Origin: Nemertoderma westbladi
Lineage: Eukaryota > Animalia > Xenacoelomorpha
Direction: 5' to 3'
Assembly (NCBI GenBank): GCA_032718475.1
Contig: JAUCBJ010008890.1
Span: forward strand, 124,001-188,000
Length of the DNA stretch: 64,000 nucleotides
Positions 4,310 to 36,431 of this stretch are shown here, in pieces. The position numbers were made by a program, and so were the translations under genes. Every line of letters begins with the position of its first letter. Positions within the stretch are counted from its first letter, which is position 1. Below the pieces are notes generated by a model. That model saw nothing but the letters and a program-made list of their open reading frames with translations, searched no databases and was not told the DNA's origin.

Positions 4310-6675
4310 TTTTTTTTTTTTATTTATTTAAAACATTCAGTTTAATTTTAAAGAATAAAATATAAACAGGGGGAACACCACCTAGGTACAAATACCTAAT
4401 TAGAAGTTATAATTAGATATATAAAATTACACTTACAGGTGGATAAAATACACATTTAAGTAGAAGGGCAAAGGCAACAGATAGAGGGATAAACGCTAAA
4501 ATACAAACAACAACAATAAAACTACAAGAATGACCAACGAAATAAAACCAAGTAAACAGAGATTATATCATCAAGTAAAAAAAACATAATTTGTTTCGAA
4601 AGCCATTGATCCTTTTTATAAAAATGACAAAAATATTAAAAACTATTTGGTAGATTAAATATAAATAAAAACAAATAAAAAATATATGTGGTTAATTTAA
4701 AAATCTGTTAAAATGACAATATGGCAATAGATCAACATCTTTCAATTTATCAGTAAAAATATTTACATTTACAGAATTGACAATTTCTTCGGGTAAGGAA
4801 TTCCAAATATCTACAGTTCTGTTTGAAAAAGAGTTTTTTACAATTTGTAGACGGCAAAACGATTTGAAAAGCTTACGGTTATGGCCTCTATTTCTAATAT
4901 TGGTACTTAAAGTGAAAAAGTCATTACAATTTAGATCAACATCATTATTAAAAATACTATACACCATTTCTAAATCATAAATATGCCTACGTACTTCTAG
5001 AGGTTGTAGCTTAAGAAAATTAAGAAAATTAATTCTCTCCATGTAACTACGGCTGCCGAGGTTACAGCGCTTAAAAAGACGCCGGGTGAAGTAACGCTGA
5101 ACCCGTTCGATTAAATCAATACTACCTAACGTAAATGGAGAGCAAACGGCAGTACAATATTCTAGTAATGGTCTGGCATATGACTTATACGCTGTACAAA
5201 TGGCTTTCAGGTTACCGGTATAAAAACACTTAAATAAAATATTCACTACTCTATACGCCTTCTTTACTTGTTCACGGTAGTGAAGATCAAATTTCAAATC
5301 GTGATTCACAATTACACCAAGATCTCTACAAAAGTCATCATTTTTTATAAGGTTACCATTAAGAAAGTATTGCACAGGTGACACCTTTATACAAGTTGTA
5401 GATAAATGAACTACTGAACATTTGTGTGCAGCTATCTTGACCTGCCACTCATTTGCCCAAGTCTCTAGTGATTTGAGAGCTTCTGCCAATGAATGGATGT
5501 CTGATGATTTGCTGTACAACTTGAGATCGTCAGCGAATAAATTACAACAGGTGCCGGTACCTATAATATCAGGTAAATCATTAACATAGAGTAAAAATAA
5601 TAATGGCCCTAAAACGCTTCCTTGAATTGTACCTGATATAACTTTGCTTACTACAGAAATAGTATTACCAACCAAGACTTGTTGGGTACGATTACATAGA
5701 AAAGCACCAATCCACAATAACAAGTGACCCGAGATACCGTAGCTAGCAAGTTTAGCCAAAAGTTTACAGTGAACGACAGAATCAAACGCCTTGGCGAAAT
5801 CTATGTATATAACGTCTATAGAGCTGCGACTGTCAAGCAGCTTAAACCATTTATTAGTACTGTCAAGCAATTGAGTACAAGTACTGCGACGTTTCATAAA
5901 TCCATGTTGCGACTTACTAATAATATTATGCAACCTTAAGTACAATAATACATCATTTTTGATACATAACTCCATTATTTTACATGTTACACATGTAAGC
6001 GAAATGGGGCGGTAGTTATAGGGATTAGTGTGGCTGCCCTTCTTAAAGAGGGGGATAATGTTAGCAGTGAGCCATATAGAGGGTAAAGCGTGAGATTCAA
6101 ATGATACTTTAAATAAAATAGACAACGGAACAGATAAACATTTAGGTAGTTTCGCAAAAATAAAACTGGGAAAACCATCTGGAGTTTTTCCACATTTAGC
6201 CTTAATATTCTTAAGTACAGAATAAACAGCACCAGGGGAAAAATCTACAGTGGAAATGTGTACACCATTAGCTACTCTACGGTTAAAAATAGGCATTGAT
6301 TCATTATCCTTTGTAAAATTCTCAGAAAAAACTTCAGAAAATATATGTGCTTTAGTAGTGTCATCAATTATTACTTTGCCATTCATTTTAAACGCAGATA
6401 TACCCGATCTGACTTTACGTTTGCTATTAACATAAGTAAAAATAGCGTTAGGCTTGCCAGATGTTAATATTTTGTTTTCACGTGCACAAGCCACTCTAAA
6501 GATGCCTTTAGAAACGGCCTTGGCACATTTCTTATACTCCTCTTGGCCGTTTTCTGTGTGGCGACGACGCCATAACAATTTCTTTCGCTTTTGTAATTTC
6601 GTTATAAAGCGCGGATGTGATTTATTACTTGAAATTTTAGTGAAAGGTACAAATTTTTCGATACCGGATTTCACT
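4310..6675 (-). mobile_element. 5'-truncated CR1-type LINE
   Basis: Poly(A) tail (poly-T from 4310 on +), candidate 7-bp TSD GTAGTAC at 4303-4309 and 6676-6682, uninterrupted RT ORF. Confidence 0.85.
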
Positions 6676-6749
6676 GTAGTACTGTAGTACAGTACAGCAG
6701 TAGGCCTACTGAACAACAACAACGGTACTTCTGTACTACATGTCTGCAT
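4692..6749 (-). CDS. Non-LTR (CR1/L2 group) reverse transcriptase lacking the APE domain
   Basis: NYRPISLT, QHGF, IDFAKAFDSV, QGSVLGPLLF, FADD, RDLGV, RPLLEY, WNSLP motifs; first ~25 aa derive from flanking DNA. Confidence 0.9.
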   Translation of the reverse strand: MQTCSTEVPLLLFSRPTAVLYYSTTVKSGIEKFVPFTKISSNKSHPRFITKLQKRKKLLWRRRHTENGQEEYKKCAKAVSKGIFRVACARENKILTSGKPNAIFTYVNSKRKVRSGISAFKMNGKVIIDDTTKAHIFSEVFSENFTKDNESMPIFNRRVANGVHISTVDFSPGAVYSVLKNIKAKCGKTPDGFPSFIFAKLPKCLSVPLSILFKVSFESHALPSIWLTANIIPLFKKGSHTNPYNYRPISLTCVTCKIMELCIKNDVLLYLRLHNIISKSQHGFMKRRSTCTQLLDSTNKWFKLLDSRSSIDVIYIDFAKAFDSVVHCKLLAKLASYGISGHLLLWIGAFLCNRTQQVLVGNTISVVSKVISGTIQGSVLGPLLFLLYVNDLPDIIGTGTCCNLFADDLKLYSKSSDIHSLAEALKSLETWANEWQVKIAAHKCSVVHLSTTCIKVSPVQYFLNGNLIKNDDFCRDLGVIVNHDLKFDLHYREQVKKAYRVVNILFKCFYTGNLKAICTAYKSYARPLLEYCTAVCSPFTLGSIDLIERVQRYFTRRLFKRCNLGSRSYMERINFLNFLKLQPLEVRRHIYDLEMVYSIFNNDVDLNCNDFFTLSTNIRNRGHNRKLFKSFCRLQIVKNSFSNRTVDIWNSLPEEIVNSVNVNIFTDKLKDVDLLPYCHFNRFLN

Positions 6750-6906
6750 GTATATGTACTACATTGACCTTCCTGCACTGTTGGCATACAGGACAGGCAT
6801 AGGCCTATTACAATATTAGTCCTGCTACTAATACTGCAATACTGAAATCCAGAAATCAAATACAGAAATCAGGAAATAACAGATTAATTGCAGAATTGGA
6901 TAAAGG

Positions 6907-14345: not shown

Positions 14346-15733
14346 CAGTAAACTTTATAGAAGTAAAAGTGTCTGAGTCTGTACTCCCAGATATTCCCAT
14401 TGGCGATATCTCCTTTGCAGAAGTGAAGGCTGCTGCAAAGAGCATTAAGACCAATCGTGCCAGTGGAGTAGATGGTGTTCCCCCTGAGGTCTTTAAAATA
14501 CCTGAGTGTTTAAAGCTCATCTATCCCATCATAGTAGACATGTACCGAACAACAAGAGTCCCACAAGAAATGAAAACAAATAAGTTGGTGCCAGTTCCCA
14601 AGAAGGGCAACCTAACACTCTATGGTTCTTTTCGGGGAATCTAAATGATCTCGATTGCTGCAAAGCTATACAATAGGATTCTATTAAATCGCATCAGGGA
14701 TCCCATTGAGAGACTGCTCCGTGGAAATCAGAATGGGTTCCGTAAAGGTCGTGGGACCATGGAGCCCATTTTGGCACTTAGAAAGATAATTGAAGAGTTA
14801 TCAAAAAAGAAAGACAGGCATCTGGCTGTTATCTTTGTTGACTTCTTCAAGGCCTTTGATTCAGTCTCTCGCTCACGTATGTTCAGCATACTTCCATTAT
14901 ATGGGATTCCTGATGAAATTATTGCAGCAATCAGATCAGTATACGATGGTTCGACAACATTTGTGTCTACTGTTGACGGTGACACAGAACCATTTGAGGT
15001 GTTATGGGGCGTCCTCCAAGGAGACACACTTGCACCATTCTTGTGCATTATTGTGGTTGACTATGTTCTACGCATGTCCTTAGATCATTATAATGATGAT
15101 GGGGTGATGATAACTCCACCTACTGGCTCCAGAAGTCGAGGAAATCCTGCCAAGTACCTAACTGATCTAGACTTTGCTGATGACTTAGGAGTACTCTCAG
15201 AATCATTAGAGGGAGCCCAACGGCTCCTCAGCTCATTAGAACATGCTGCTTCTAGTGTTGGTCTTTTTAATAACTCCAGAAAGACCAAAATTCTGACAGT
15301 TAACTTTGAAAGTCCTCAGCAAGTCTCTGATCGGATGAGCATAAGCTCAAAGGATGGTATGCTTGAGCATGTGGACGACTTCTGTTACCTGGGATCATGG
15401 ATCCGGAAGTCAGGTGAGGACCTTCGAATACGTAAGGGAAAGGCATGGGCAGCCTTGAATAGGCTTTCCAGGATTTGGAAGTCACCGATAATTAATCGGA
15501 AACTTAAGGTCCGATTATTTAGAGCAGCAGTAGTTCCAGTACTCCTCTACGGGAGTCCATGCTGGGCTCTAACTGCTGAGGACACCAAATCTCTGGATGG
15601 CACATTCACAAGAATGCTACGCCGGGTTCATTGTGTCAAGTACAATGCACACATCTCCAACCAGACACTATATAACATTGGAGGTGTCTCATTGGTTCCC
15701 CCAAGCTTGACACTAGAACAAAATAGAACAAAA
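14346..15733 (+). pseudogene. RTE-type LINE reverse transcriptase fragment
   Basis: ASGVDGVPPE, PVPKKG, QNGFRKGR, DFFKAFDSV, GVLQGDTLAPFL, LDFADD, FCYLGS, LLYGS; in-frame stop at 14642-14644; truncated at both ends. Confidence 0.9.
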
Positions 15734-16760
15734 CTAGAACAAGGCACAGACAGAGGGACACACAACGTGGATTGGGCGGCACGCGACACATACTGGGGGG
15801 CACTTGTCACATACTGGGGGGCACCCGACATATACTGGGGGGCACCCGACACATACTGGGGGCACCTGACACATACTGGGGGGCACCCGACACATACTGG
15901 GTGGCGTCCAGCTGGCGGGAACCCAATATAGATAGGGGAGCACCCGACACAGGTAGGGGGAAGCACGACATGGATTGGGGGGCAATCAATACGGGCTGGG
16001 GAGCACCTGACTCAGACAGGGGGGAGCCTGGCACAGACTGGGAGACACCCGGTTCAGATATGGGGACACCCATCGCAGACTGGGGAGAGCCCGACTCGGA
16101 TTCCATGAGGTAGTCGAGTTCATCCAGAGTTCAGTTTATTTGTGGTGTCTCACTTGGTGCCTGGACCCTGCCCTTTTTCGTTGTTGTAGCCTGGCTCGTC
16201 CGCGGCGAGTTGGTTAACATGTAGTCAAGTACGACGTGGCCCACAGACCCGCTGTAACCGGGAGGCATCACGATGGGAACGGATTCTGAGGCTGTGTGAA
16301 ACGGGGTCGCTGTCCTATTGGGTAGCTGAAAGATGATGAAGCCAGGGTTATGAAGCCGGGGAGATGAAGCCAGGGTTATATCATGGTCTACCAGGGTCTC
16401 GTCGCCATCTTCTCCTGTTGATGATGTGGCAGTCGGTTGGGATGCACTGCTGTTTTTGGAAGGCGATATGTCACGCGAAGTGCCGGAGACGACTGGCTGC
16501 GAACTGACAGCTCCCAGTGCGTTACAACAACGCCCACTCGCCATCGGAGCACAGGAGGCGCATGGCAATCCCGACCTCGCACACGAACAACGAACGCAGC
16601 GACCAGATCTAGGGTTGCAACCACAGCAAGCAGGCATCGCGACAGACGGATACTCCAAGAGGGAGAGAGAGAGAAGGATCGGACAAACTTGCTATTAAAC
16701 CAGACACAGGCAGAATTGTATTAGGCAAGTTAGAACTCGTACAGTCCCGTCAGTACGTCA
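15734..16760 (-). mobile_element. CRE-clade element 5' part with Cys-rich N-terminus
   Basis: CCGCNPRSGRCVRCSCARSGLPCASCAP..GRCCN resembles N-termini of metazoan CRE ORFs; same strand and GC level as the 3' part; 5' boundary approximate. Confidence 0.6.
15786..16100. repeat. 21-bp tandem repeat (PQYVSGA heptads on - strand), decaying rightwards
   Basis: GACACATACTGGGGGGCACCC repeats. Confidence 0.85.
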
Positions 16761-17541: not shown

Positions 17542-18780
17542 TTATTCCTTATATCTTCTTATAAATATGTTGCGATTAACTGCCTTTCGGAAATTTCCAA
17601 CAAATATATGCATGAGATAAAAGTTTAGACTGAAGACAATACCAAACATATTAGATATATGACCTGCAATATATTGGATAACTAACATTTTTTCATAAGC
17701 AGAAATTTCATCCATTGTAGATAAAGGATGTAGATTTCCTGATATATTCACAAGAATAGTTCTTATAATGTGCCAGATTATACGGGCACAATCTTTTGCA
17801 CACATTAGTGTTCCAGTAACGAGCATCATATTTACAGCGGCAGATATTCTATGATTGGCTGGTGGATTTGGGTTAGCCCTCATTAGCTTTCTTAACTTAT
17901 AAATTAAGAGACCGTTTATAGCAAATACTCCTACAATTTGAATAGATTTTCTTATAGGAATGAAATAGTCCAGAAACTGATACGCCCTAATGAAGTGGAC
18001 ATTATATGAACCCCAATACATATATAAAGCCCAATATTGCTTTTCGCCATTTACATATCGAATCTCACCCTTATACATAACTACATAAGGCCAGTACAGA
18101 CACGCTGTGTAAATAAATATAACTACAATAATCCCATATATCATGTTATTATTCTTTAATTTTGTATCCTTATACCATACCGGGAAATAAAGGGCTGCAA
18201 TACGCTCTGCGCCCATAATTAAGGTGAGTGTAGAATCTCCATATTGTACACACCCTACAAATATCGGCCAATAACACTGGCATAACCATGAAACAACGTT
18301 ATAACAATGAAGTTTCCAAATTGTATTGTTGTTTACTATCAATGAATCATATTCAAAATAGAACCATTCCGAATTATGACCACATTGCAGCAGTTGGCCA
18401 AACGAGATAAGAATATCGAAAACAGACTTTAACACCAACATTCTATAAAATAGAGTACTGAATGATTTCTCCATTGCAATTGTTACAATAATTAATATAT
18501 TTCCAATCAGACCAAATAAATTATATGTTGATATATATGGCGTTAGAATAAAATGGGAAATGAAATCGCCAGCGTTGAGATAAAACTCATATCCTTGCAA
18601 TATCTCTTCATAATCAGATTGGAGAATAGTTTTATAAAACTTGTGGTACAGATTTGATTCGGTTGTGTTACTTGTGTTCCCATTAACTATTGGGTTGATA
18701 CCATCGGTAGCATCAGAAACAAAGACAAAAATACAAGTAAAATACAATAACAATTGAATGAGAAAGTTTGTTACAAACAT
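17542..18780 (-). CDS. Intronless rhodopsin-like (class A) GPCR, peptide-receptor/chemoreceptor-like
   Basis: Signal peptide, N-glycosylation sequons, GLIGNILII (TM1), VFD (TM2), ERIAALYFP (DRY-equivalent), SLNFYL (TM7), FRKAV helix 8. Confidence 0.85.
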   Translation of the reverse strand: MFVTNFLIQLLLYFTCIFVFVSDATDGINPIVNGNTSNTTESNLYHKFYKTILQSDYEEILQGYEFYLNAGDFISHFILTPYISTYNLFGLIGNILIIVTIAMEKSFSTLFYRMLVLKSVFDILISFGQLLQCGHNSEWFYFEYDSLIVNNNTIWKLHCYNVVSWLCQCYWPIFVGCVQYGDSTLTLIMGAERIAALYFPVWYKDTKLKNNNMIYGIIVVIFIYTACLYWPYVVMYKGEIRYVNGEKQYWALYMYWGSYNVHFIRAYQFLDYFIPIRKSIQIVGVFAINGLLIYKLRKLMRANPNPPANHRISAAVNMMLVTGTLMCAKDCARIIWHIIRTILVNISGNLHPLSTMDEISAYEKMLVIQYIAGHISNMFGIVFSLNFYLMHIFVGNFRKAVNRNIFIRRYKE

Positions 18781-19042
18781 GTTTTCGTAAGTCGAAATAA
18801 CATAAGGCTAAAACCAATGAATTTGTAGATTATACTTCCACAGTTGACATTAACATAAAATTTCACATGAGACTTTCAATATGGTTCAATTTGTTATTAG
18901 GCCTACTGATTTATGTTTTTTCCCGTGCAGGTACATGTAATAAGGTACTGTACAAGTCAATAACTGTTAATTTTAAAATATGTGGGAATATTAAAAAGCG
19001 TGATTGAATAAATTGTTGGAAGAGGGATAATTCTGAAAGAGT

Positions 19043-19418
19043 GCAATTGTATGGGGCGCCGTGGGCTTCAAAAATATTAAAATGTCGGCGACTGGTTCAG
19101 ATTCTCGGCGACTGGTTTAGATTCTCGGCGACTGGTTTAGATTTCGGCCTAGATTTCGGCCAAGATTTCGGCTTAGATTTCGGCCAAGATTTCGGCTTAG
19201 ATTTCGGCCAAGATTTCGGCTTAGATTTCGGCCAAGATTTCGGCTTAGATTTCGGCCAAGATTCTAAGCCGAAATCTTGGCCGAAATCTAGGCAAAAATC
19301 TAAACCAGTCGCCGAGAATCTAAACCAGTCGCCGAGAATCTGAACCAGTCGCCGAGAATATGAACCAGTCGCCGACATTTTGATATTTTTTGAAGCCCAC
19401 GGCGCCCCATACAATTGC
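19043..19418. mobile_element. Palindromic foldback/MITE with internal 21-bp and 24-bp tandem repeats
   Basis: GCAATTGTATGGGGCGCCGTGGGCTTCAAAAA at left, reverse complement at right; arms extend to centre ~19262. Confidence 0.85.
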
Positions 19419-20351
19419 CGAAAGCTAACGAAACTTATGCGAAAGTTATCGAAAAGGTTGAAGTAGGGGTGAAAGCTATCCATTAAATGATAGTGGGCAC
19501 ATTTCGCACTTTCCGGGTTCGATAGTATTTATAAACAAAAAAAATACGAGCTATAATTCAAATAATTGCCATTTAATTCCAAATATCTCTTCGCTAAATA
19601 TAAATTCACTGACACAGTAAAGGCTAAATGTACCTTCATTCCGTTACTGGGCCAGTAGTCAGTACAGCAGAAGCAGTTGGCTACTGCGGCCCCTACCATG
19701 CTACCATCAGACCAGCCACCGTCTGACCGCGTGGCGGCGCATTACATCATTGAGAATGGCCTATAGCCTACATTTCAAACTCTTATAATATTTTTAAAGC
19801 TATATTCGATTCCGGTACTGATAACGGCGATAGTAATAGCTGTAGGTTTCACCTCAATACTACAGCACCGTCCCACGTCACTTTATTACCAGTAGGCCTA
19901 CTCAGTTTGTACTGTAATCCATTCTTCAGTCTTTAATGCAGTAATACGCAACACCGCGGTCAGACGGTAGCAGGTTAGCCCGCCGACAGGCCGATGCGGT
20001 GAGCCGGATGCGGTCATTTTTTTAGCAACACCTTCAACCCAAGGCAATAATCCATCAGTGATTTTGGAGACAGAAAATTATCCAATCAAGATAATAACAA
20101 CAATTAACGGTGATAAATGTAAAAATACTTTAAATATATTTTACAAAATCATTTATTAAAACACCGCAATACAATAATGATAGGGTTGTTGGTGCGCGAG
20201 GAAATTATTAATTTGGGTTAAAAACCATTGAATAATGAAAATAACAAGGTGCCCTTGATCAATTGATGATGTGTGTTTTTTGTAAAGAGATGTGGAAAAT
20301 GTTGAACACAATTTTGAAAATCGGCTGTCTTTGGCTATTGAAGAAATTACA

Positions 20352-21034
20352 TGTGACGGGATCCTAAGATCCCGACCGGGTTAGATTTGTACGCGTCACC
20401 GTTCTGCTGGGCAGTTATGCACTGAGTCGCTTTGGCCGAAGGCCGTCGGGGAAAATAATAGAGTTTCTGTTTCTCGATGTTGATACTCAGAGCGATAATA
20501 GCACAATCGGTAAATCGGTAGATCAGTAATGATCACGACATATAATGAGCAGCAGAATACACAGATATTAAATTGCTGATGTTGGTGGCGGTGACGGTCA
20601 TAAACTATGACTGGTCTGCAACTGAGTAACTAATGAACTGACCGGTAAATCAGTAATGCAGAATAATATATGATTAACACACTCGGATATTGATTTCACC
20701 TCTTGCTGTACTTGGCCCTCTGTACCCAGTGGATGCTTTCCTATCTCTAACCACGTGCTTCCCTCCCCGCTATTGGCTAATACATTAATTGTCACTTTGG
20801 CACTCCCTGTGAGTGTTTCCCCCCGCTGCACTGGTAGCCTCTACTAGCTGTATCTCCCTCCGAGGTGGTTTGACCCTCCCTCTCTGTGGCTTTAGGGCTT
20901 GTGTCGCCCCCCCCCCCCCAATGTTGGTTATGAGACGAGATTAATATTGGTAATTTCGTATCCCCAACTTATTGGTGAAATGCCACTGGTCCCATTTTCT
21001 GGTGGGTAATGAAGTAGAATTGAACCCACTTACA
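20352..21034 (-). repeat. 3' LTR (683 bp)
   Basis: TGTGAC...CTTACA, homologous to 30492-31167; preceded on - strand by a G-run polypurine tract at 21035-21043. Confidence 0.95.
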
Positions 21035-22153
21035 CTCCCCCCCATGCTATCTTCCCGGTGAGAAGATAGCATCAACCTTAAGTGCGCTTCAATTCCGCTG
21101 GAACCCAATCTAATATCGGGTGTGGGGTGGAGTTCTTTTCTCGGGGTCGGCTTCCCTGACCGCCCCCCCTGGGTATGTTATTACTACCCCTCCTTGGTGC
21201 AATTGCGAGCTATGCTGCACCAAGGTATCTGGCGTCTCTGTTCGAGACAATTGTGCTCTCTCTTCACACAATTTTCTACGTCCTCGCTCTAATCTCACTC
21301 TCGGAAATCTCTGTCACTTACTCTCTCTCTCACAGACCTCATTGTCCCTTTGTCTCTCTCTTACTGCTCATTGCCCACACTTGAATTGCACTCCTCTCAC
21401 TCCCTCACGTGTCAACACATCCTCTCCGTACTTCCCCCAATTCCCCATTTTCGTTTTCATTCTCAATATACTTGATTACGTCCCACGCATGTGCGCATCA
21501 TGTTAGTGGGGTCCGTCTAAGTCTCGTCCTGCCATTCTAGTCAATTAGTCCCCTAACTTTATTTTATTATTTTTTTTTGTTCCCCCCTGTCTGTGCTATT
21601 ATCGTATCTACCTTCCTACTTACTTACGTGGCGCCCTCAGTGCCCACAACTTCTAACTCTTATGGTACTACGTATCCTACTACTACTCCTATGGTATACC
21701 TATATACCATACCCCCTACTCTCTTACTATGTGGTGCTCTCGCTGCCCACAACTTCTGACTCCCACGGTACTATGTACCCCGACTACTACTCTCATGGTA
21801 TGTCTATATACCACACTCCATACTTCTCTAACTTCTAACTCTCCTCTTACTCTTACTAACTTCTAACTAGCTTTCTAACTTCGTTACTTCTGTACTAACT
21901 GCTTACTAACTCTCGTAACTAACTTTCTAACTTCTTACTTCTTACTAACTCTTACTAACTTCTAACTAACTTTCTAATTTTCTTACTTCCTTACTAACTG
22001 CTTACGTAACTTCTACACTAACTTTCTAACTTTCAAATATCTCGCTTCTTATTTTTATTATTTGCTTATTATTTTTTTTTATATTTTTATGTGGGAAGGG
22101 CGTCTCACCCTCATTCCCACCCCCCTTAGTCCAACATATTGGACGACTAAACT

Positions 22154-23457
22154 CTAAGGTGCCCCTTCCAATACGCAGAACTTTCCCACAGCCCTCCTGT
22201 AGGTCTTCCTATCTTTGGCTCCTATCTTGCCTCCTATCCTCACTTCCACCGACCGGACTCTTCCGTCCTCGTCGGGGTAAGTATCTACCACCCTCGCTAG
22301 TCTCCATTGGTTATTGATAATTGTGTCGTCAGTGACGATTACCCAGTCACCCTTCTTCAACTCCCTATTGGTGTTTCTCCACTTACTTCTCCTATGCAAC
22401 ATCGTAAGATATTCTTCTACCCATCTCCTCAAATACTCCGCACTTATTGCCTTGGCGACTTTCCAGCTTTGATGGGAATGTATGTCATCTGGGTCCACTC
22501 CCCGCATGTCGATTGTCGCCGGCCTCTCCATTAGAAAATGTCCTGGTGTTAGCACATCCAGTGATTCCGGGTCGTCATTCTCTGGATATAGCGGTCTGCT
22601 ATTAATGATTCCCTCGCAATTGGCTAGCACCGTTCTTAATATATCCTCTGTGACCATGTGGTTGTTCATCAACTTGGTCATTAAACGTTTGGAACTTCCG
22701 ACAAGTCTCTCTACACACCCTAACGTATGTGGCGCATACGACATTCTCCTTTCCCACTTTACTTGCTGTTTACTCATAGCCGCCCTGACATCTTCTCCCT
22801 CTAGGATGTCGAAGGCCTCGGCCAACTTGTTCTCCGCTCCCACGAAGTTGGTCCCGTTATCCGAATATATCACCTTGAGCGTTCCCCCTTTGCAGCTTAC
22901 AAACCTTTCTAAGGCATTAATAAATGCCGATGCCGTAGCGTCCTGCGCAAGTTCTATTCCCACCGCTCTTGTGTTGTTGCAGACAAAGATAATGCCGTAG
23001 CATTTCTCCATGTTCCGCATAACCTTTATCTTAATCGGCCCGAACATGTCCACGCCGCAGTGCGTGAATGGCGGGTCGTGTTGTCTCACTCTGTTGGCCG
23101 GTAATGGCGCCATCTCTTGTACGGCCCTCTCCTTTCTCGTCCGTCTGCAGGTCTGGCACACTTCCCCACTACCGCCTTCACCTTCTTCCTAAGTTGGGTG
23201 ATCCAGAATGTCCTTCGTATCTCCGTGAGGGTCTGATTTGTGCCTCCGTGTAGTATCGATTTATGTGAGTCCCATATAATCTGGTGGACTATTGGTGATT
23301 TATTGGGGATTATTATGGGTTTTGGTGGGATAATTAAGCTGTTGTTGTTCACCACTCTGGAATTCATCACCAGAATCCTGTCATCGTTCAACTGCGGGGA
23401 CAGTGTGTTGAGTTCGCTGTCTCGACGAAGGTGTTGTTGCTCGCTGACTCTATCCAC
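22154..23457 (-). pseudogene. BEL/Pao integrase (frameshifted)
   Basis: H..H.G, C..C, PPFTHCGVDMFGP, SDNGTNFVGA, ERLVG, INSRPL, LTPGHFL, W.LARV...PD.DGRVRSV. Confidence 0.92.
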
Positions 23458-23592
23458 TTCGTCGGCGTATTCCTTTCTTTGCTCATACAGTATTATGGCT
23501 TTAGCCGCTCCTTCCAGATCGATGGTTGGTTTCCTTTTGGCATCCTTGCCAACTCCCCTAAGGAAATCCCCGTAGGCCCTCCAATATGCTAC

Positions 23593-26200
23593 CTACTTCT
23601 GAGTCTTATACCAGCTGGAGCTGTAACTGCGCAACCTGTCCGTCGGATTTTCGCATGGTTCTTCTGATTTCGGTGGCACTTCCTTGATCTCCTTCACCAA
23701 CTGGCTGTATATCTCTTCCCCTACTGAAACCTCCCCCTCCTCTTCTGCTACTACCTCCTCTGAGCCCAGGTCCACCTTCCTCATTGGTGGCCAGGCTGAC
23801 CTATCGCTCAGGAAGTGTGGCCCGCGCTGCCACAACTCTTCCTTCTTTGAGAAAGTGTGGCGTGCAACGCCCCTCGATAATAGATCTGCTGGATTGTCGT
23901 CGGTAAGCCAATAATGCCACCTTTCTAGGTCAGTCGTCGCCCTTATCTCGTCTACCCTATTCGCGACGAATATAGGGTATCTCGTCTTCTCATTATGTAG
24001 CCACCCTAGCACTACCATGGAGTCCATCCAGTAGTGTGTCTCCACTATGTTGGGTATAGTGTCCATCAAGTAAGCTGTGGCCCTTACTCCTAACCTCGCA
24101 GCTGTCAGCTCGAGTTTCGGCACTGACGCTGAATCTGGTGGCGTCCACTTCGCTTTACTAAATGCAAGTCTGGGCTTATGAGCCCCCTTTCGCTGTACCA
24201 AATAAAGCGCCGCTCCATATGCTTCCAAGGATGCATTGGAAAACATGTGTAGATCCAGGTCCATCATGTCTCCGTCCGGGAAATACACGTGTGGTATGCT
24301 GTACGTCCCCATCTCCTCTAGACTTCCCGTCCACTTACTCCACTGTCTACTTATTTCTTCCGGGACCTCCGTAGTCCGTATCCCACTCATCCTTTAACTT
24401 GTATACTTTCTTTAGTATTTGCTTCCCCGTGACTAACAATGGGGATGCTAGGCCTAGGGGATCGTATATCCTTGCTATGTACAATACATAGCCCCGCTTA
24501 GTGTGGATCTCTGCACCCTCTTGGCTCAGTTGATACTCCAACTCGTCCGTCTCCCGGTTCCACACGATCCCTAGCGCCTTTTGCTGAGACTCAACTCTCT
24601 TGTTTGCCATATCCTGTCCCTTTGCTGTTGTGGGGTTGTCCATGGTCGACTCTGGTCACTTGTCTTCTATGGCTTTCATGAATTTGTCGGAGCTGGACTG
24701 GAACTTAGTGAGGTTGAACCCGGATCCTTTTAGGATGTCGCGAACCTCGCGCCCTATCTCCAGTATTTCTTCAACCGTGTTTCCAGATCCCATTCCATCA
24801 TCGACATAGAAACTGCATCGAATCATGTCGATCGCCTTCGCACTATACTCTCCTTCCTTGCCCTCTAACGTATCTCTCACAGCCATAGTTGTTGTAAATG
24901 AGGACGACTTGGCCCCCATGTTTTGCACCACCATTTTGTACATCGGTATCTCAGACGGTTCTTCATCGCCGTTGTACCATAGGAAGCGCTGACTGTCGCT
25001 GTCCTCTTCCGTCACATGGACATGGTTGAACATGCCTTCAATGTCGCACATGAAGGCGGCCTCCCATTTCTGAATCTCAACAGGACCTCTATCCCCGAGT
25101 TGTAGATGTTGGGGCCCTCTAGCAGATAGTTGTTCATGCTTTTGCCATTCGATTTGGCCGACGCGTCAACCACCATCCGCAGTTTACCCTTCTTTGGATC
25201 TAAAGCCACGTGCAGTGGCAGATAGTAGGTTCTGTCTGTGTTTGGCTCGTCGACCGGTAACTCAACGGCCCATCCCTTCTCAACGTACTTCCTGATTGTC
25301 TTATGGATGTACTCGTCCTTCTCGGGGCTCCGTCTGAGCATCTGTTTCAGTTTGCGAAGCCTCGTGAGTACCATCCCTTTGTTATCCGGTAACGGTATCT
25401 TTGGTTGTTTCCACACCATTCCTATGGTGTACCATCCCACTTCGCACTTCATCGATTCCTTTACGCTCTCTATAGCTTGTTTATCTTCTACCGAGGTTCC
25501 GACCCCGGCCTCCTTTAGTCCTTCGAAGTCCTGCTTCAACAGCCTCTTAAGCTGCTCCTCTGCTCCTTCATCCTCCATCTCCCTCATTGTCCCTGCGAAC
25601 ATGCACCCTGATGTCTCCAACACCCTGAATGGAATTTTGGCTTTAATTGGGCCGCTAAGCATCCATCCGAACGGCGTGAGAATCGCCATCTGATCGCGCT
25701 GCCTGTTCTCTCCGAATATGGTCCGTACTCTCTCGTGGGCCGTCGGACAATCCATTCCCACTATGATGGATACCTTCGAGATGTCCACTTCCGATATTGA
25801 TAAATCGATATCGTCCAGGAACCGGTATTGCTCGACCTCGATCCTAGTGGGTCGCCTGGCATTTATATTAATCGATTCTATTATTTGAATGGGGTCGATG
25901 GTCGCCCCATAATCATATCCTGGTGCTATTGCTGATATCTCGCACCGTCCCGTTCTCATCTCCAGGACCTCATCCTTGCTCGAGATGGTAGTTACCGCCA
26001 TCCTACTCGGCCTCGTCTGTAACCCTATCTCCTCGGCCACCCAATTCTCCACCAGCATGAAGGCTGCTCCTCTGTCGACCAGCATCAGTGTCGTGACTGA
26101 TCAGCCACTTTCTCCTATCACCCTCACTGGTACCACCCCGAGTAATACCGTTCCCCTTCTCTTCGCTCCTATGGTGCTTGTCGCCATCGTTTGACCTTTG
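23593..26200 (-). pseudogene. BEL/Pao protease, RT and RNase H (fragmented)
   Basis: LVDRGA, KLRMVVDAS, DIEGMF, YVDD, YDPLGL, FSNAS, PKLEL, DSMVVL, NPADLLSRG; several stops and frameshifts. Confidence 0.92.
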
Positions 26201-26209
26201 CCTTGACCG

Positions 26210-27396
26210 AATCTTATTGGCGTCTCCTCACACTGTTCAACTTTATGTCCGCCTACCACACATCAATGACAGATTCCACTTCTGTCCGCATATTCTACCT
26301 GATCTTGTTTGGGCAATGCCTGCCAATACTTGCAGTTCATAGTCTGATGGAGTGCATTCGAGTGTAATTGGCATTTGTTTCTCGGATTATAGCCTTCTCT
26401 ATACAGCACATTGCGTATTGCACGTATATTTATACTTAGCTGTCTAGTGTTCTTATTGTTTGGGTTTGGCCTACTGGGCGTGTTGGGGTTATATTTGTTC
26501 GTGTTATTATTTTGTCCCTGTTCATGCCACGGTGTGGCCCTACCCCCGGCTATCTGTGGACTTGCAGTCCCCTGCGTCGCCGCATATGGTAGCGACTGTC
26601 TTAACTTTAGTAACACATTTGCCGCACTATGTTCTGGTTTCAGTCTGTTGTATTCGGTCCTCGGCGCCCTCCCCAGACTATCCTCGCTGTAGACTGGGTC
26701 CGTGATTAGTTCTGCCTTGTAATTGAGGAAGTTCGACATTTCCTCTAGGCCCGGTTCCGCACCTTTCTTCTCCCGGGTGGAGAAGGCGATCTTCCTCCAC
26801 TTATTTCGTAGCCAGATCGGCAGTGCCTGCGCTATTGTGGTGATGTTATTCGATGCGTTGAGTTCATAAGGCGCATCCAAGGTCTTCAGCACAATCGAAA
26901 CACAATCAGCGCCTTTTCGACTTTATTCATGAAAGTCTTGATGCTGACAGGGTTATCTTGTAGTCCACCTGATGTTATTCCCCTCAAGGTTTGCCGGATG
27001 ATCTTGGCAGGGTGTCTGAATTCCCTGTCTAGGGCCCGCCATGCAGTCGTGAATCCGCCCTCGATACCTTGGTACTGCCTTACGATGTCTTGTTTGTCAT
27101 GTCGATTTGAACGGCTCCACTGGTGGCAGCTCGATCCTGGTCTTAAGCGCATCGATGAGTGTCGCCATTCCCATTGCCTGTACTTCTAGTGCACTCGACA
27201 GATGCTGTACAGATTCCCCTGCTACTGGGTGCGGTTCACCCGTAGGGCCTGTCGACCTCCTTTGCGTCGGATATATCATTGGGGGTAACAGTCCCCTCCA
27301 TATCTCTGTATCACACGATCTATTTTGGTCCGAGGGGTTTGGGGGTTTTGTTCTTGGTTGAGTATATTGCTGATATTGTAATGGGGGAATGTCACC

Positions 27397-27427
<31 letters not shown>

Positions 27428-27759
27428 ACCGGTGCTATATTTGGTATTGGGGTTGATGTTACCATGTTAGGGCCTAAACATCTATCGGCAATAGCTCCCC
27501 CCTCCCCTGGGTATATGTTATATCCCTGCATATTATAGTCATACTGGTGTGCAGGTACCGGTATAGCCCTATCCACGTCTTGCCTACCTGCTGGTATGTA
27601 TGCCGCGACTTCCGGATCTAATGCCGTTGTCCTCACTACCCTATCGCCTACACTATCTCTTTCAGCATGGCCTATAGTATGTGTAGTAAGGCCTACAGTA
27701 TGTCCTGCAGTCTGCCTGTGTCCTTCCGTACTGAAGTTTAATCTTCTCGAATATTCCAA
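26210..27759 (-). pseudogene. BEL/Pao Gag (fragmented)
   Basis: AWRALDREF, LPIWLRNKW, C..H....H....C and further Cys/His knuckle remnants. Confidence 0.75.
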
Positions 27760-27807
27760 GAAGTCCTCCCCGCGACTACCGTACTCTCGATCGGCAGCTA
27801 TATCCCA

Positions 27808-30450
27808 TCAGGAAGTTTCTCTTCGATCCCCTCTCCTGTCCTCGTCCTCGCACCAGTACATCCTGTACCCTTCTCCTGGTGTGTGGTATATCTCACCAGG
27901 CTGCGTCTCTCCGGGGCGACAGCAATCTTCCAGAGTTCGACCCCACTGACTCTCTAACTCCATCTCTGCTACCGACGGTTCACTGTCCATCCTTCCCCTC
28001 TGGTTGCTCGTAGCAACGCTTCTTCTATTCTCTTCACTTCTTCTCTCTTCAGTGTAGCGATCCCCTTCGTGAGATCTCTCTTCAACCTCCCGGATAAACT
28101 CCACTGTTCTTCTTCCGTCTTCCGACTGGGCTAAACGCTTGCCCGCTCACGGCACCAACCTCTCTCTCTCTACCCGGTTGGACGCTCTTGGGGATACTCG
28201 CAATCCCCCTACTATTCTCTGTCGTCGGGTACCGCAGTTCACCTAACTCGCCGCGCGCATTGTCCGCCGTTCCCCCGCGCGCATTGTCCCCCCCCCCTCT
28301 TGCCACTAATCTCTCGTGGTGGGGTGCCCGTAGCCCCCCCCCCCCATTCATCACCTCTTACTTCACTACCTCCTGCTTCGCTTCTACGTCCCTCTCTAGT
28401 CAACGCACTATCTCTACCCTGGCTGGTCTACTCACCCCCACCTCTCCCTGTGCAACTGCGTGGCCTTGCAGGCTCCCGTTGGGTTGACTCACTCCCGCTA
28501 CTCCCTGCGTAACTATGTGGCGTTGCAGGCTCCCATTCGGTTGACTCACCCCCGCTACTCCCTGCGTAACTACGTGGCCTTGCAGGTTCCCATTGGGTTG
28601 ACTCACCCCCGCTACTCCCTGCGTAACTACGTGGCCTTGCAGGCTCCCACTGGCCGGACCACCTGTCTCCCCTACGTTTGTATTAATTGCACCGCTATTG
28701 ATAACATTATTTTGATTAATTTCCCCGGGATTATTATCCAACACAACATTGTTACCTAAGTTATTATTTAAATTATTTAAATTATTTTGTTCAGAATTAG
28801 GGTTATTATTTGGATTATTCTGCACATTTAAATTAGGATTATTATTTGGATTATTTTGCACCTTTAAATTAGAATTATTATTTAGATTATTTTGCACATT
28901 TAAATTAGAATTATTATTTAGATTATTTTGCACATTTAAATTAGGATTGTTATCTGGATTATTTTGCACATTTAAATTAGAATTAGTATTACCAGGTAAA
29001 ATATTATTTCCTGCAACAAAAGTTTGATTAGGGTTGTCTATTACGGTACTATTAATATTAATTCCTTCTAACGTATTATTATTACCCCCCCCTCCCACCC
29101 CCCGCCCGTACAGTTACACCAGTCCTGGGTCTGTCGTCCAGTACCTGTAAGTGGGGTATTAACAAACGTTTCCATTACTTCTGGCTCCTCGGAAATACTA
29201 CCCGAACCAGCCTCACTCTCCGATAATCCCAACTTTGCCAGTTCTAACCGGCGCTTTTGCTTCGCCTGGTATTGCATAAGTCCCCTCAACCGGGTATGCA
29301 TATCATCCCGCATACGCTTTCCCGCTCTCTCTCTTTCTCTGTCCTCTCTCAAACTTTGGTCGGCCAACTCTCTCTCTCTCGCCTCCCGCTCTCTACGCAC
29401 GTTCTCTATTCTCGCCTCCCGCTCTCTACGTTCGTTCGTTTCCCTCTCTACCCTCGCTGTCTCTTTCGCTTCTCGCTCTTTGCGCTCTTTCTCTACTCTC
29501 GCCACCCGCTCCTCTCCCTTGTTTATCTCTCTCTCCTCTCGCTCCTTATAGTTTCTCGCCACCCTCTCGGCCCTCTCTTAACATTCCCTCAGTAACTCTC
29601 TCTCTCTAATAATGTGGTTCCCTCGTCTAGTTGCCTCTCCAACTCCTTCTGATCCAGCGCCACAATGTCTAGTTGACACGCCATCGGTCATGACACTTAT
29701 CGGTCGCGATGGACTCCCAACGTATCTCTGTCCTACTAACTTTCCCCCGCTTTCTGGGGTTCTCGCTGACCGACGACACCGAATCCTCGGGGTTAACCTC
29801 GGGTTCGCCGTGGTGTGGGTCCGCCCATCCCACTAACTTAATTCCCCTTGCATCCACTAAGTAAGGCCCTACATACACTACGTCTGGCTCCATTACCCCG
29901 GATCGCCACAATTCAAATACTTCCGTGGCGATCCCCCTTGCTCTCTCACTCGCCAGTTCTCCCTGTCCAAAACGGACTAAATAGCGAAAATTCTTATTCG
30001 ACTCACCTAGCCTCTGGTATAGTTTAGGCTGATCTACCTTCCTCCTCTCCTTGGCCTCTTTAAGTAGTTTCTTGGTGGCGTTGTAGGCCCGTCATAACCG
30101 ATCACTTGTCCTGACGTCCTCTTCATCGACTCCGCCTCCTCTCCTTGTCCGGCGTCGTACCGGCGGCCCCACTGTCGCTGCTCCGGTGGGCCGTCCGTCG
30201 CCCTCGGCCTGTGGCTGGCGGCGACTTCGGTACTCCGACCGCCGCCGTGCGTCGACTCGTCTCTCCCTCGTGGTTGGCGGCCGCCCTCCGCTTGGGCCAT
30301 CGGATCGTCCCTGGTTGGCCAATCCGGTATGGCGGGCCGATACCGTCTCGTTGCGGCCTCTCTCGGATCGTTTGGTTGGTGTCATCTGGGGTCCGCGGCG
30401 GCGTCCTCTCTCCCTCTGAATCTCTGGGATCCAGATCGCTCATCTCTGTT
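27808..30450 (-). pseudogene. Long low-complexity ORF segments upstream of Gag (Arg/Glu coiled coil, Asn-rich 33-bp repeats, 57-bp repeats)
   Basis: ORFs 29068-29562, 28400-29098 and neighbours on the gag strand, broken near poly-C runs. Confidence 0.55.
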
Positions 30451-30481
30451 TCTTGGCAGTCACAGTTTGTTGTAGCTGGTG

Positions 30482-30491
30482 AGTTTATGAC
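30482..30491 (-). promoter_or_regulatory. Candidate self-priming PBS GTCATAAACT
   Basis: Abuts the 5' LTR with no gap; exact complement AGTTTATGAC (- strand) inside both LTRs at 30730-30739 and 20597-20606; no TGG tRNA PBS. Confidence 0.55.
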
Positions 30492-31167
30492 TGTGACAGG
30501 ATCCTAAGATCCCGACTGGGTTAGATTTGTACGCGTCACCGTTCCGCTGGGCAGTTGCACTGGGTCGGTTTGGCCAAAGGCCATCAGGGAAAAATAATAG
30601 AGTTTCTGATTCTCAATGTTTATACTCCGAGCGATAATAGCACAATCGGTAAATCTGTGATGAATATCACGACATATAATGACAGCAGAATACACAGATA
30701 TTAAATTGTTAATGTTGGTAGCAGTGATGGTCATAAACTATGACCGGTCTGCAACTGAGTAACTAATAAACTGACCAGTAAATCAGTAATGCAGAATAAT
30801 ATATGATTAACACACACGGATATTGATTTCACCTCTTACTGTACTTGGCCCTCTGTACCCAGTGGATGCTTTCCTATCTCTAACCACGTGCTTCCCTCCC
30901 CGCTATTGGCTAATACATTAATTGTCACTTTGGCACTCCCTGTGAGTGTTTCCCCCCGCTGCTAGCCTCTACTAGCTGTTCTCCCTCCGAGGTTGTTTGA
31001 CCTCTCACCTTTCTCTGTGGCTTTAGGGCTTGTGTCGCCCCCCCCCCCCCAAAGTTGGTTATGAGGCGAGATTAATTATTGGTAATCTCGTATCCCCAAC
31101 TATATTAGTAAAATGCCACTGGTCCCATTTTCTGGTGGGTAATGAAGTGGAATTGAATCTGCTTACA
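30492..31167 (-). repeat. 5' LTR (676 bp)
   Basis: TGTGAC...CTTACA followed by TSD TTACA. Confidence 0.95.
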
Positions 31168-31609
31168 TTACATCACACGGCTTATTAATCATTTTACACC
31201 TGGTTTATTATATCAATTGATAACAGATCATCTTGCGAGTCTTTTGACACCTAAATTAATTAAATTAAAGAAGAGGAACGTTGAGAAAAATGTTTGCAAT
31301 AGCAAACAGCAGATTTCCAGCGGAATTCCCGAGAACACACCGCTTGAAGGTGCTGATTCTGATATTGAGAAGTGCAATTTAATATTTGAAAATATGGACA
31401 TCAATAAATTTAAGTTCGTTCTGGTGCGTTTGGGGGTTATAGAAGATGGGAATCCTCAACTACTGTAATCATTATTTCATTACCACCAGGTGCGCCTAAC
31501 TGTACGGATATTTTGGGGCGAGTCAATACTGCGAGCCATTAACGAACTGTTATAATTATACTATAAAAGTATAATCATATCATTCTGAATGATTATTTTG
31601 ATGATTATT

Positions 31610-33476
31610 GATTTTCATATAAATCTACCCCAGCCTCATGGCGTTTAAAATTTTGCAAAATTTGCCAAATTTAGCCCTAAAAATACAGCAAACCTACTTC
31701 GTAGTCTGTATAGTTGAAATCGACTTACTGGGGTTTGGAGTTCTTCCTGAGTGAAAACCAAGTCCACTGATTTGATGACAACTATATTTCAATACTAGAA
31801 ACCCAGCTAGCTGGCTGTGAATTTGCCTTTGGATCAAATTCCCAATAAGTATATTATAAATAAACAAGAGTAGGCCTAGGTCTAGGAAGAAGGATAATTC
31901 TAAATTAGGAAAACACTAGAAAAACACTAGAAAATACTGAAAACACCCGGAAAACATTAAAATTATTGATCAACAGGAAATTTAATACATCGATTACACT
32001 GAATTGGTAATCTTAAATGTACTCCTCGCATAGCACACGTTAAGTAATCTCCGTAAAACATAGGGAAAACTCTATAAACCCTCTGGATAACAGTGAAATT
32101 TTACCTATATTTCGCTAGAAAGCGGGGTAGCTCAATTGGCTGACGCCAGGCCTGCAATCGATTGGTTGTAGGTTCAGCCCCACCAGGGTCCACTCAGCCG
32201 CCTTTCATCCACTGGGGTCGATAAATTGAATACCAGTTAAATAACTGGGAGCAAATCTTGGGATAATAGTAGCGCCCACCCCTACCCTGGGTAGCATCTA
32301 TCGAAAGAGGAGCCTTCGGGTCGCCTCAACTGTTTGCTTGATATGCTGCTAATAATACTAGGTGAAAGAAGAAATAATCAGCATGCAGTTCAGCACTATC
32401 CTTGTTTTACTGGTCAGCCAGTAGTACCAGTGTTGCTGTATTCTGGTATTACATAGTGTATTCCAGTATTGTTAGTGTTAGGTCAATTCATCTGCTAAAT
32501 GTTGGCAGTTGAAGTGCAGAAGCTGTGGTATTTATTATTAAGGATACCATTCATACCAGAAAACCGAACTGACTAGAAAATCATGTGTGATGTGTTCTAG
32601 ATCTTGCATCCGCGCTTCTAGCCACACTGGTATGCCACTTCAATACAGTATCACTGTAGGTAGGACCTAACTGTGGCCCTCTTGCTGTCTTAATATTAAA
32701 TACCGCATCATCTGCACTTTAACTGTTCAACATTTAGCAGATGACAAGATCCAACACTAACAATACTTGAATACTGGAATACACTAATACCAGAATACAC
32801 CATTAATGTGCCTCTACCGGCTGACCAGTAAAACTGTTGAAATGCATGCTGATTGGTTACTGTTCCTTGGTTGCCGGGCAACAATGGTTTCTGTGCAGTA
32901 TTAGACACTTTCAACTTATTTTTTAGCAGCATATTAGGTAAAATTTAATGCTATTTAATGCCAATCATTTTTTCACTATTTTCTGGACAGTTTATACTGT
33001 ACTGGTTCCTTTTTTTTTTACGGAGATTACTTAATGGTGTGCTATGCGAGGAGTACATTTAAGATTACCAATTCAGTGTAATACATGTATTAAATTTCCT
33101 GTTGATCAATATTTTTACTTTTTCCGGGTGCTTTACAGTGTTTTTCATATGTTTTTCTAGTGTTTCACTGTTTTACTAGTGTTTTCCTAATTTAGAATTA
33201 TCCTTCTTCCTATACCTACTGTTGTTTATAATATACTTATTGGGAATTTGATCCAAAGGTAAATTCACAGCCAGCTAGCTGGGTTTCTAGTATTGAAATA
33301 TAGTTGTAATCAAATCAGGGGACTTGGTTTTCACTCAGGAAGAACTCCAAACCCCAGTAAATCGATTTAAACTATAGAGACTACGAAGTAGGTTTGCTGT
33401 ATTTTAAGGGTGAAATTTGGCAAATTTTGCAAAATTTTAAAGGCCATGAGGCTGGGGTAGATTTAAATGAAAATCA
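31610..33476. mobile_element. Large foldback structure with nested inverted arms
   Basis: ~31610-32058 is the reverse complement of ~33015-33476; inner arms ~32340-32520 vs ~32710-32934. Confidence 0.85.
32121..32330 (+). mobile_element. tRNA-derived SINE inserted in left arm of the foldback
   Basis: A box TAGCTCAATTGG, degenerate B box GGTTCAGCCC, core CCACTCAGCC..TTTCATCC..GGGGTCGATAAATTGAATACCAG; absent from the right arm. Confidence 0.75.
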
Positions 33477-35300: not shown

Positions 35301-35616
35301 ATTCTAAGGGAATGGATTTGTAAAAGTTTGGTCAACCAATAAGAGTCCAAGTTATGGGGTGTTCTGTTCAGCAACATGCTTGCTCGATTTCTCTACATTA
35401 TTGTGGTTGGTGGAATATGCAATGCGAATAGCTGGCTCTTGGTCGGTGTTAAATTGGGATCCATATGACTCGGGAGATTTACCTACGAAACGTGCGAATT
35501 ACTTTTAGAGATTTTTGTTAATTAAATCTGTTTGAATATTATTTATTATACAGTAGTTCTTAAAAGAAATTTACAGTAGAATTTCACATAATGGTATAAT
35601 CTATGTACGTACTGTA

Positions 35617-36184
35617 CACCATGTCCGGGAATATAGTGTCGTTTTTCAGTTACCTGCCCCCCCCCCCCCCCACCCCCCAAAAAAAAATTGTCTACAAATC
35701 TTAATGAGATTGCATGAAACTTGAAACAGATATAGTTTCACCTACCTCCTCATCCTCCGTGAGTGAGCCAGAATTTTTATTTTTGCTTTAAATATTTAGC
35801 TAAAAGTGTTTGAAAAAAGTGTCTCCGGCGATATTTCACAGGTCACAGTGTAATCATTATTCAACTGTTCTATTCAATTATTCTATGGTACCAATAGAAA
35901 GCTTCCCTTGCCCTTGCTTTCCACTGTACCTACAAATCACTATAAGGTTGAAGAATGACTTTGCTCTCTAACTGTTGCAATATCGGCTTAGACACTTTTT
36001 TAAAACGCTTGTAGCTAAAGAACGAAAGCAAAAATAAAAATTCTGGCTCACCCAGCAAGGAGGAGGCGAAACTATCTATGTTTCAAATGTCATGCAATCT
36101 CATTAAGATTTGTAGAAAAATTTGGCGGGGGGGGGGGGGGGGGTCATGTACCTGAATTACGACACTATATTCCAGGGTATGGTG
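35617..36184. mobile_element. MITE with long TIRs and TA target duplication (Tc1/mariner-like)
   Basis: TA|CACCATG..GGAATATAGTGTCGT vs ACGACACTATATTCC..ATGGTG|TA; arms ~200 bp including poly-C/poly-G. Confidence 0.8.
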
Positions 36185-36431
36185 TAATGTACGATGTATT
36201 CGATACATACTTTTAAAACAACCTTCCAATGACAGTTATACAGTAGTAGAGGTGGAGGAAAACCACCAATACTGTTGACAGGATCACGAAGTTTATGATG
36301 GTCGTTGACAAGTGTTGGTTGATCTAGATAGTGATCAGTATCTGAAATCTACGTTCAGTGTGTAAAAGTATGGCTTCCTATATTTTATGGGCCATCAGTG
36401 CATTGATCGATGCATTACCCCGTGAGTCCCG

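Follow-up and report, generated by a model that had tools for sequence, protein, structure and literature searches.

Self-priming of reverse transcription has been described for the Tf1/sushi group of LTR retrotransposons and for Tcn1 (excerpts of PMC6317226 and PMC3601003). In Tf1 the stretch that pairs with the primer-binding site (PBS) has 11 nt, and RNase H cuts the RNA between bases 11 and 12 (passages of PMC7175516 and PMC4600332). For the TAR lineage of plant Ty1/copia elements (Houba, Osr-1) self-priming was predicted from the complementarity between PBS and LTR (excerpt of PMC6317226). The fungal GalEa elements, also Ty1/copia, carry a conserved hairpin site at the junction of LTR and leader and, according to the same kind of partial source (PMC5445492), no complementary LTR sequence.

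BEL/Pao elements, the Belpaoviridae of the ICTV, are described as tRNA-primed, with an 18-nt PBS for tRNA-Arg or tRNA-Gly; their replication is called 'poorly understood' (PMC8742986). They have LTRs of 0.2-1.2 kb, a polypurine tract (PPT), a gag-pol with the order PR-RT-RH-IN and a length of 4.2-10 kb (PMC8742986). By title and abstract we found no report of self-priming in this group; subscription journals, Repbase Reports, GyDB and supplements lay outside the search, so a prior remark is possible. Of two BEL/Pao papers searched by term, PMC3118150 does not mention PBS or tRNA and PMC554778 does not mention priming or tRNA; passages of PMC8220671 and PMC6934838 are silent on BEL priming.

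The element described here lies in a stretch of 64,000 nucleotides (the window; all coordinates refer to it). Like Tf1 and Tf2 of Schizosaccharomyces pombe, Tj1 of S. japonicus, the Tf1/sushi group and Tcn1, as these are presented in the excerpts, it has no tRNA site, and its PBS pairs with its own LTR. It differs from the Tf1 group, which are Ty3/gypsy chromoviruses, in belonging to another superfamily, with Peptidase_A17 and DUF5641 and no chromodomain match. Compared with Tf1, the complement is 10 nt long, an overlapping hairpin repeats the start of the PBS, and the pairing segment is only a predicted transcript 5′ end. With the TAR lineage, as characterized in the excerpt, the element shares PBS-LTR complementarity outside Ty3/gypsy, whereas TAR elements have the Ty1/copia domain order and occur in plants. 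With GalEa, again as excerpted, it shares a short inverted repeat at the LTR-leader junction, but it additionally has the LTR complement. LTR size, TG...CA ends, the short target-site duplication, PPT and Pol order are those of Belpaoviridae, whereas the tRNA PBS is absent and the length of 10.8 kb is slightly above the ICTV range.

Sequence comparison indicates, with a probability that we put at about 75%, that in the family of this element minus-strand DNA synthesis starts from a fragment of the element's own RNA and not from a host tRNA. This reading is preferred because the pairing between PBS and LTR persists, with different letters, in relatives that lack a tRNA-type site, and is not seen in tRNA-primed ones.

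Architecture and classification of the element

The element occupies 31167-20352 on the minus strand. LTR alignment delimited a 5′ LTR of 676 bp (30492-31167) and a 3′ LTR of 683 bp (20352-21034), both of the form TG...CA and 95.1% identical (635 matches, 33 mismatches, 23 gap columns). Target-site duplications of 5 bp flank the element at 31168-31172 (5′ copy) and 20347-20351 (3′ copy), and the PPT (21035-21043) adjoins the 3′ LTR. The gag region (26266-30443) has a long repetitive 5′ part and is interrupted by stops and frameshifts. The pol region (22154-26100) consists of six pieces, in which Pfam profiles identified, from 26100 to 22154, protease, RT, RNase H (Peptidase_A17) and integrase (zinc finger, core and DUF5641), in the order found in BEL/Pao. 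The BEL-specific Pol profiles matched with E values of 7e-22 (Peptidase_A17) and 1e-22 (DUF5641), and DUF5641 was present in all of the best 120 protein matches to the element. A weak match to the BEL-type Gag profile DUF1759 (E 0.045) was found in a 99-aa piece (27185-26889). The Pfam search for the chromodomain of Ty3/gypsy chromovirus proteins found no match in the element.

The named clades of BEL/Pao are BEL, Pao, Tas, Suzu, Sinbad, Dan and Flow. Because of its Pfam domains and their order the element is BEL/Pao-type by its predicted proteins, and not a tRNA-primed semotivirus as described; the BEL/Pao assignment had been made in a first-pass annotation of the window, and both the pol domains and the nearest proteins bear it out. 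The copy in the window has decayed and is dead, since stops and frameshifts break gag and pol; the LTR retrotransposon family that it comes from is of BEL/Pao type and present in high copy number. The coding region has an unusually long 5′ part (30443-27200) with 36-bp and 57-bp tandem repeats. The 3′ untranslated part of the element is a purine-rich segment of 1.1 kb with repeats of ~100 bp (22150-21050).

The primer-binding site and its complement in the LTR

The 18-nt PBS for the 3′ end of a host tRNA, a BEL/Pao trait, is missing from the element: the leader contains no TGG within its first 48 nt, which reach to the likely start codon. The 10 nt that follow the 5′ LTR directly (PBS, 30482-30491, minus strand) instead pair without a mismatch with part of the element's own LTR, as in the Tf1/sushi group. 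This predicted self-primer segment lies at 30730-30739 on the same strand, and an identical copy is present in the 3′ LTR (20597-20606). The duplex would end precisely at the LTR boundary, with zero gap. The PBS starts with GT directly after ACA (ACA/GT, the stroke marking the LTR end). The first-pass annotation had reported the lack of a TGG-type PBS, the complement in both LTRs and the flush end of the duplex, and its coordinates for LTRs, PBS and complement all held.

A 10-nt complement at offset 0 was obtained in one of 5000 dinucleotide shuffles of the LTR, and in 12 of 5000 when offsets 0-7 were allowed. Exact LTR complements exist for 14 of the 9447 internal 10-mers of the element, one of which is that at position 0. 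Scans for tRNA genes found none in the window; the 60 loci scanned contained two. An Rfam scan of 30300-31200, which is insensitive to 10-mers, returned five matches, all far below the gathering score and none of them tRNA-like.

Variation within the family

DNA contigs from three runs, representing two samples, hold many copies of the family. In run X1, 33 places between 30440 and 30800 differ in at least 8% of the depth. Among 29 of these 33 places, and among 40 of the 51 variant rows over all runs, none falls in the PBS, in the primer segment or anywhere in 30724-30753; in the rest of the LTR part, family contigs vary at about one place in ten. Since the PBS shows no variant among the copies thus compared, the odd PBS is a trait of the family and not the result of decay in a single copy. 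Insertions and deletions in the leader start at 30480, which is the 12th nucleotide and does not fit an 18-nt tRNA site; together with the unvaried PBS this indicates that the conserved part comprises ~10-11 nt and not 18. In run X2 a contig was found that carries indels at 30468, 30474 and 30480 while its PBS is unchanged. The invariance of PBS and primer is modest evidence: 20 invariant letters are expected about one time in eight if one place in ten is variable. No compensatory change was seen within the family in the contigs of the three runs.

At 30507 the majority of loose ends in the three runs suggests a diverged subfamily with another LTR end and perhaps another third PBS base, a hint only, as these are majority cells over unlike contigs with an agreement of 0.61-0.67. 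Such a subfamily could supply the missing co-variation test.

tRNA-type and self-pairing relatives

Loci of relatives were collected with an integrase alignment: 80 were taken from at least 589 matching metagenome stretches, so that closer relatives may exist beyond this set, and 42 came from genome contigs. LTR pairs were refined in 43 loci and in the window; eight of the 44 pairs, in which an end was truncated or without TG/CA, were left out, and 36, the window element included, were scored by one rule. All 28 copies with a TGG-type PBS (~17 families by the tree) reached an LTR complement of only 4-8 nt. The genuine non-TGG relatives had longer complements: 11 nt in L081, L085 and L090 and 14 nt in L091. 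The fraction of shuffles that did as well was at most 0.01 for each of these four and for the window element. The complement is contiguous in L085 (offset 4), as in the window element (offset 0), whereas in L081, L090 and L091 it runs across the exon junction of an intron in the LTR. Three further candidates for non-TGG elements were discarded: in L054 and L099 the LTR end had been mis-called and a TGG-type site lies slightly further on, and the LTR pair called in L060 is probably not one.

The splice-junction rule was framed after inspection of loci and was not set blind. L151, fetched later and thus out-of-sample, has an 11-nt complement across a junction (2 of 1000 shuffles). Among 33 partial loci without an independent LTR end, seven had a junction match of 11-15 nt; individually these matches are weak (0-9 of 40 shuffles), and in six of the seven GT directly follows ACA, which the scan did not demand. 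The other 26 had no junction match of at least 11 nt; five of them carry a TGG-type site and many are without an LTR part. In L008 and L018 the junction type was recognized by eye only. The intron-type relatives thus number 13 (L008, L018, L019, L025, L041, L044, L066, L081, L082, L086, L090, L091 and L151), and with the contiguous L085 they are the relatives whose PBS pairs with their own LTR. Some of the intron-type relatives are sister families, so there are fewer than 13 independent events.

Complements in self-pairing relatives measure 10-15 nt, the 10 nt of the window element being at the short end, and ACA/GT occurs in 10 of the 15 tabulated non-tRNA elements, the window element among them. 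The intron-type relatives resemble the window element in having a non-tRNA PBS with a 10-15 nt complement in their own LTR, mostly after ACA/GT. They differ from it and from L085 in that the complement exists only across the exon junction and the splice sites are strong. PBS letters vary between self-pairing families and the pairing is kept.

Protein identity between the intron-type relatives and the window element is at most 35%, and three protein searches yielded no integrase relative above 42% identity. In RT-RH-IN trees, computed without an outgroup and with no direction of change claimed, the window element has a long branch and falls outside the self-pairing clade. Its placement within that clade was rejected under LG+G4 (p-AU 0.014, 38 rows), but not under a mixture model (p-AU 0.57, 26 rows). 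Viral contigs contained no relative of the element, and in L146-L150 no LTR pair was found within the 13 kb fetched. L146-L149 belong to the same BEL family as L150, in which one in-frame stop lies between the gag frame (773 aa) and the pol frame (1391 aa), a possible read-through site (L150:3864-10361). The 42 BEL/Pao loci L081-L122, many of them complete with LTRs, come from records titled bacterial or archaeal genomes and are likely animal DNA left in bacterial or archaeal bins.

Transcription start and RNA structure

Two positions were considered for the start of transcription. A TATA-like TATATT at 30803 lies 31 nt before the +1 position, 30772, of an initiator-like TCAGTT (30769-30803, minus strand; motif match only). 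Both motifs, as well as CCAAT and an E-box, are present in both LTRs. CCAAT, E-box, TATA and initiator are promoter motifs, and 31 nt is the usual distance between TATA and initiator, which favours 30772 over 30739, the first base of the predicted primer segment. The earlier caveat that no canonical TATA is found ~30 nt upstream holds for 30739; the TATA-like box lies before 30772. In two intron-type relatives AATAAA lies 0 and 7 nt after the predicted primer end (L081:1719-1733 and L082:3118-3139), which would leave a very short R region; neither AATAAA nor ATTAAA occurs in the LTRs of the window element.

A supporting U5 stem-loop beside the PBS is a feature of the Tf1/sushi group. In the window element a 7-bp U5 hairpin and an 8-bp stem between U5 and leader are predicted, both dependent on the stretch that is folded. 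The hairpin (30729-30745, minus strand) is the small one noticed around the 10-mer in the first reading; it has 7 bp here and 6 bp in the 3′ LTR, and the first 6 nt of the PBS recur in its 5′ arm (~1% by chance). Folding predicts that it masks the primer in RNA starting upstream of 30745. The 8-bp stem (30497-30490 with 30466-30459, a 23-nt loop, minus strand) has a predicted energy of -9.3 kcal/mol and a probability of ~0.6 at 37 °C in longer RNA. It had been described as bracketing the PBS; the stem exists, though it also takes in the first 2 nt of that site.

The duplex of PBS and primer has a predicted energy of -10.6 kcal/mol. In RNA starting at 30739 and cut at 30440 it is part of the minimum-energy fold (probability 0.82), and when the RNA is extended by 40 nt to 30400 its probability falls to 0.04. 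With starts upstream of 30745 the hairpin has a probability of 0.79-0.98 and the duplex one of 0.00-0.18. The computed folds reveal a competition between hairpin and duplex and, being too dependent on the folded stretch, are not proof of priming. Masking of the primer by the predicted hairpin favours a start at 30739.

For a start at 30772, which would give a 43-nt primer with an unpaired 5′ part, the chances appear roughly even. A start at 30739, with the exact Tf1 geometry, is a serious candidate at somewhat under even odds, and a start elsewhere is improbable. In the 13 intron-type relatives the pairing stretch spans an exon junction, and it is therefore unsafe to take it for the transcript's 5′ end. 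Pairing is required only of the primer's 3′ end, and the view of the first-pass annotation that a start elsewhere would refute self-priming is too strict. Of its Tf1-like reading, the BEL/Pao type and the absence of a tRNA-type PBS stand, and the contrast among relatives makes self-priming the best reading, whereas 30739 is a candidate start.

Alternative explanations

The element might use a spliced primer, like most self-pairing relatives. Removal of an intron from 30832 (or 31001) to 30738 would, under loose GT-AG rules, create an 11-nt junction match (8+3), which is the commonest length and split among the relatives; the segment begins with AG, and the PBS has the ACA/GT of intron-type elements. 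The splice sites argue otherwise. Splice matrices were built from 11 relatives, in part selected for pyrimidine-rich acceptors, and relatives were given leave-one-out scores. The window acceptor at 30738 scored -8.8 (24th of 49 AG sites), against 5.4-15.6 in 10 of the 11 relatives and -2.0 in one. The donor at 30832, present in both LTRs, scored 1.3, against 6.1-10.1. A fitting upstream donor (GAG-GT) is found in 44% of shuffles, and the TATA-like box and the initiator would sit inside the intron. The strong LTR-intron splice sites of the splice-junction type are thus lacking; with weak sites and a donor so readily found by chance, the window element belongs to the contiguous type. On these scores the spliced primer was rejected for the window element, and we consider it quite unlikely. 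Slightly less improbable, though still unlikely, is a host RNA primer such as a tRNA half or an internal tRNA fragment, the LTR match then being a structural element or a relic. PBSs for half-tRNAs and internal tRNA regions have been described in Ty1/copia (excerpts of PMC6317226 and PMC5445492), but such a primer leaves unexplained both the exact LTR complement, seen once in 5000 shuffles, and the restriction of such complements to non-TGG relatives. PBS letters vary freely among relatives, which a fixed set of tRNAs would not allow, and the Rfam scan, for what it can detect with 10-mers, found nothing tRNA-like around the 5′ LTR end.

The stability of the 8-bp stem would also suit a functional local hairpin at the LTR-leader junction, similar to that of GalEa, in which a hairpin replaces the PBS and the LTR has no complement to it (portion of PMC5445492); long-range pairing would then regulate packaging or translation and not priming. 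Against this, the X2 contig has its three indels in the loop region and an unchanged PBS, the duplex ends with zero gap at the LTR edge, as a primer requires, and the long-range pairing is kept in relatives. We consider a local function instead of priming quite unlikely, the odds being a shade below those of splicing. The least probable account is coincidence, or a match that short local duplications produced as a side effect in a decayed copy. Near-repeats of the segment do occur in the LTR (at 30772-30765 and in the hairpin arm), and the LTR end resembles the start of the PBS; but the shuffle frequencies at offset 0 and over the eight offsets, the absence of variation at PBS and primer positions among the family variants listed, and the same geometry in 14 relatives have largely refuted this explanation already.

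A model of self-priming and its implications

If the element self-primes in the manner of Tf1, the 5′ part of the transcript would loop back to form the 10-bp duplex, and the RNase H of the RT would cut the RNA after 30730. The new 3′ end would then prime at the edge of U5, and the effective R region would begin at ~30729. More tentatively, the hairpin at 30745-30729 may mask the primer segment in any context that includes sequence upstream of it, chiefly in the RNA's 3′ LTR, which would leave the 5′ copy of the segment as the sole possible primer. The hairpin would thus do in the window element what the intron does in the relatives. Alternatively, the conserved GT after CA could be a dinucleotide trimmed by integrase, the cut lying two bases inside the duplex.

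The sequence feature is real and probably reflects priming without tRNA, a variant of a known mechanism, in elements whose group is described as primed by tRNA. The window contributes the contiguous, hairpin-masked form in a lineage without a close relative, and the analysis an independent set of loci in which tRNA-type and self-pairing BEL elements are contrasted. A wider proposal, which we regard as speculative and rather doubtful, is that self-priming is the normal mode of a large and old part of BEL/Pao. It would come in two builds, an intron-split primer in the 13 relatives and a hairpin-hidden contiguous primer in the window lineage, both of which bar the 3′ LTR copy. On this view the family in the window would represent either a separate lineage of great depth or a second origin of priming without tRNA in the BEL elements of animals, and the choice of start site would be a replication switch. 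If a large part of BEL/Pao self-primes, tRNA-free priming would exist in all three LTR superfamilies, which would bear on whether self-priming is ancestral or was repeatedly invented. Regulation by tRNA-derived small RNAs that act at the PBS would presumably not reach such elements, and annotation software that relies on a tRNA PBS would overlook or misjudge them.

Other features of the window

A satellite array with a 37-bp unit and 44-bp variants, in more than 500 copies and with a GC skew of ~ -0.44, occupies 36400-60900. Two open frames with RVT_1 matches, at 4692-6758 (minus strand) and 14645-15931 (plus strand), are likely non-LTR retrotransposons; the latter also matches DUF6451. A 421-aa open frame at 17542-18807 (minus strand) has a weak 7TM GPCR match and is possibly an intronless host receptor gene. 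Long inverted repeats of MITE or foldback type, up to 255 nt long and 95% identical, were found at 31609-33476, 35608-36193 and 19070-19390.
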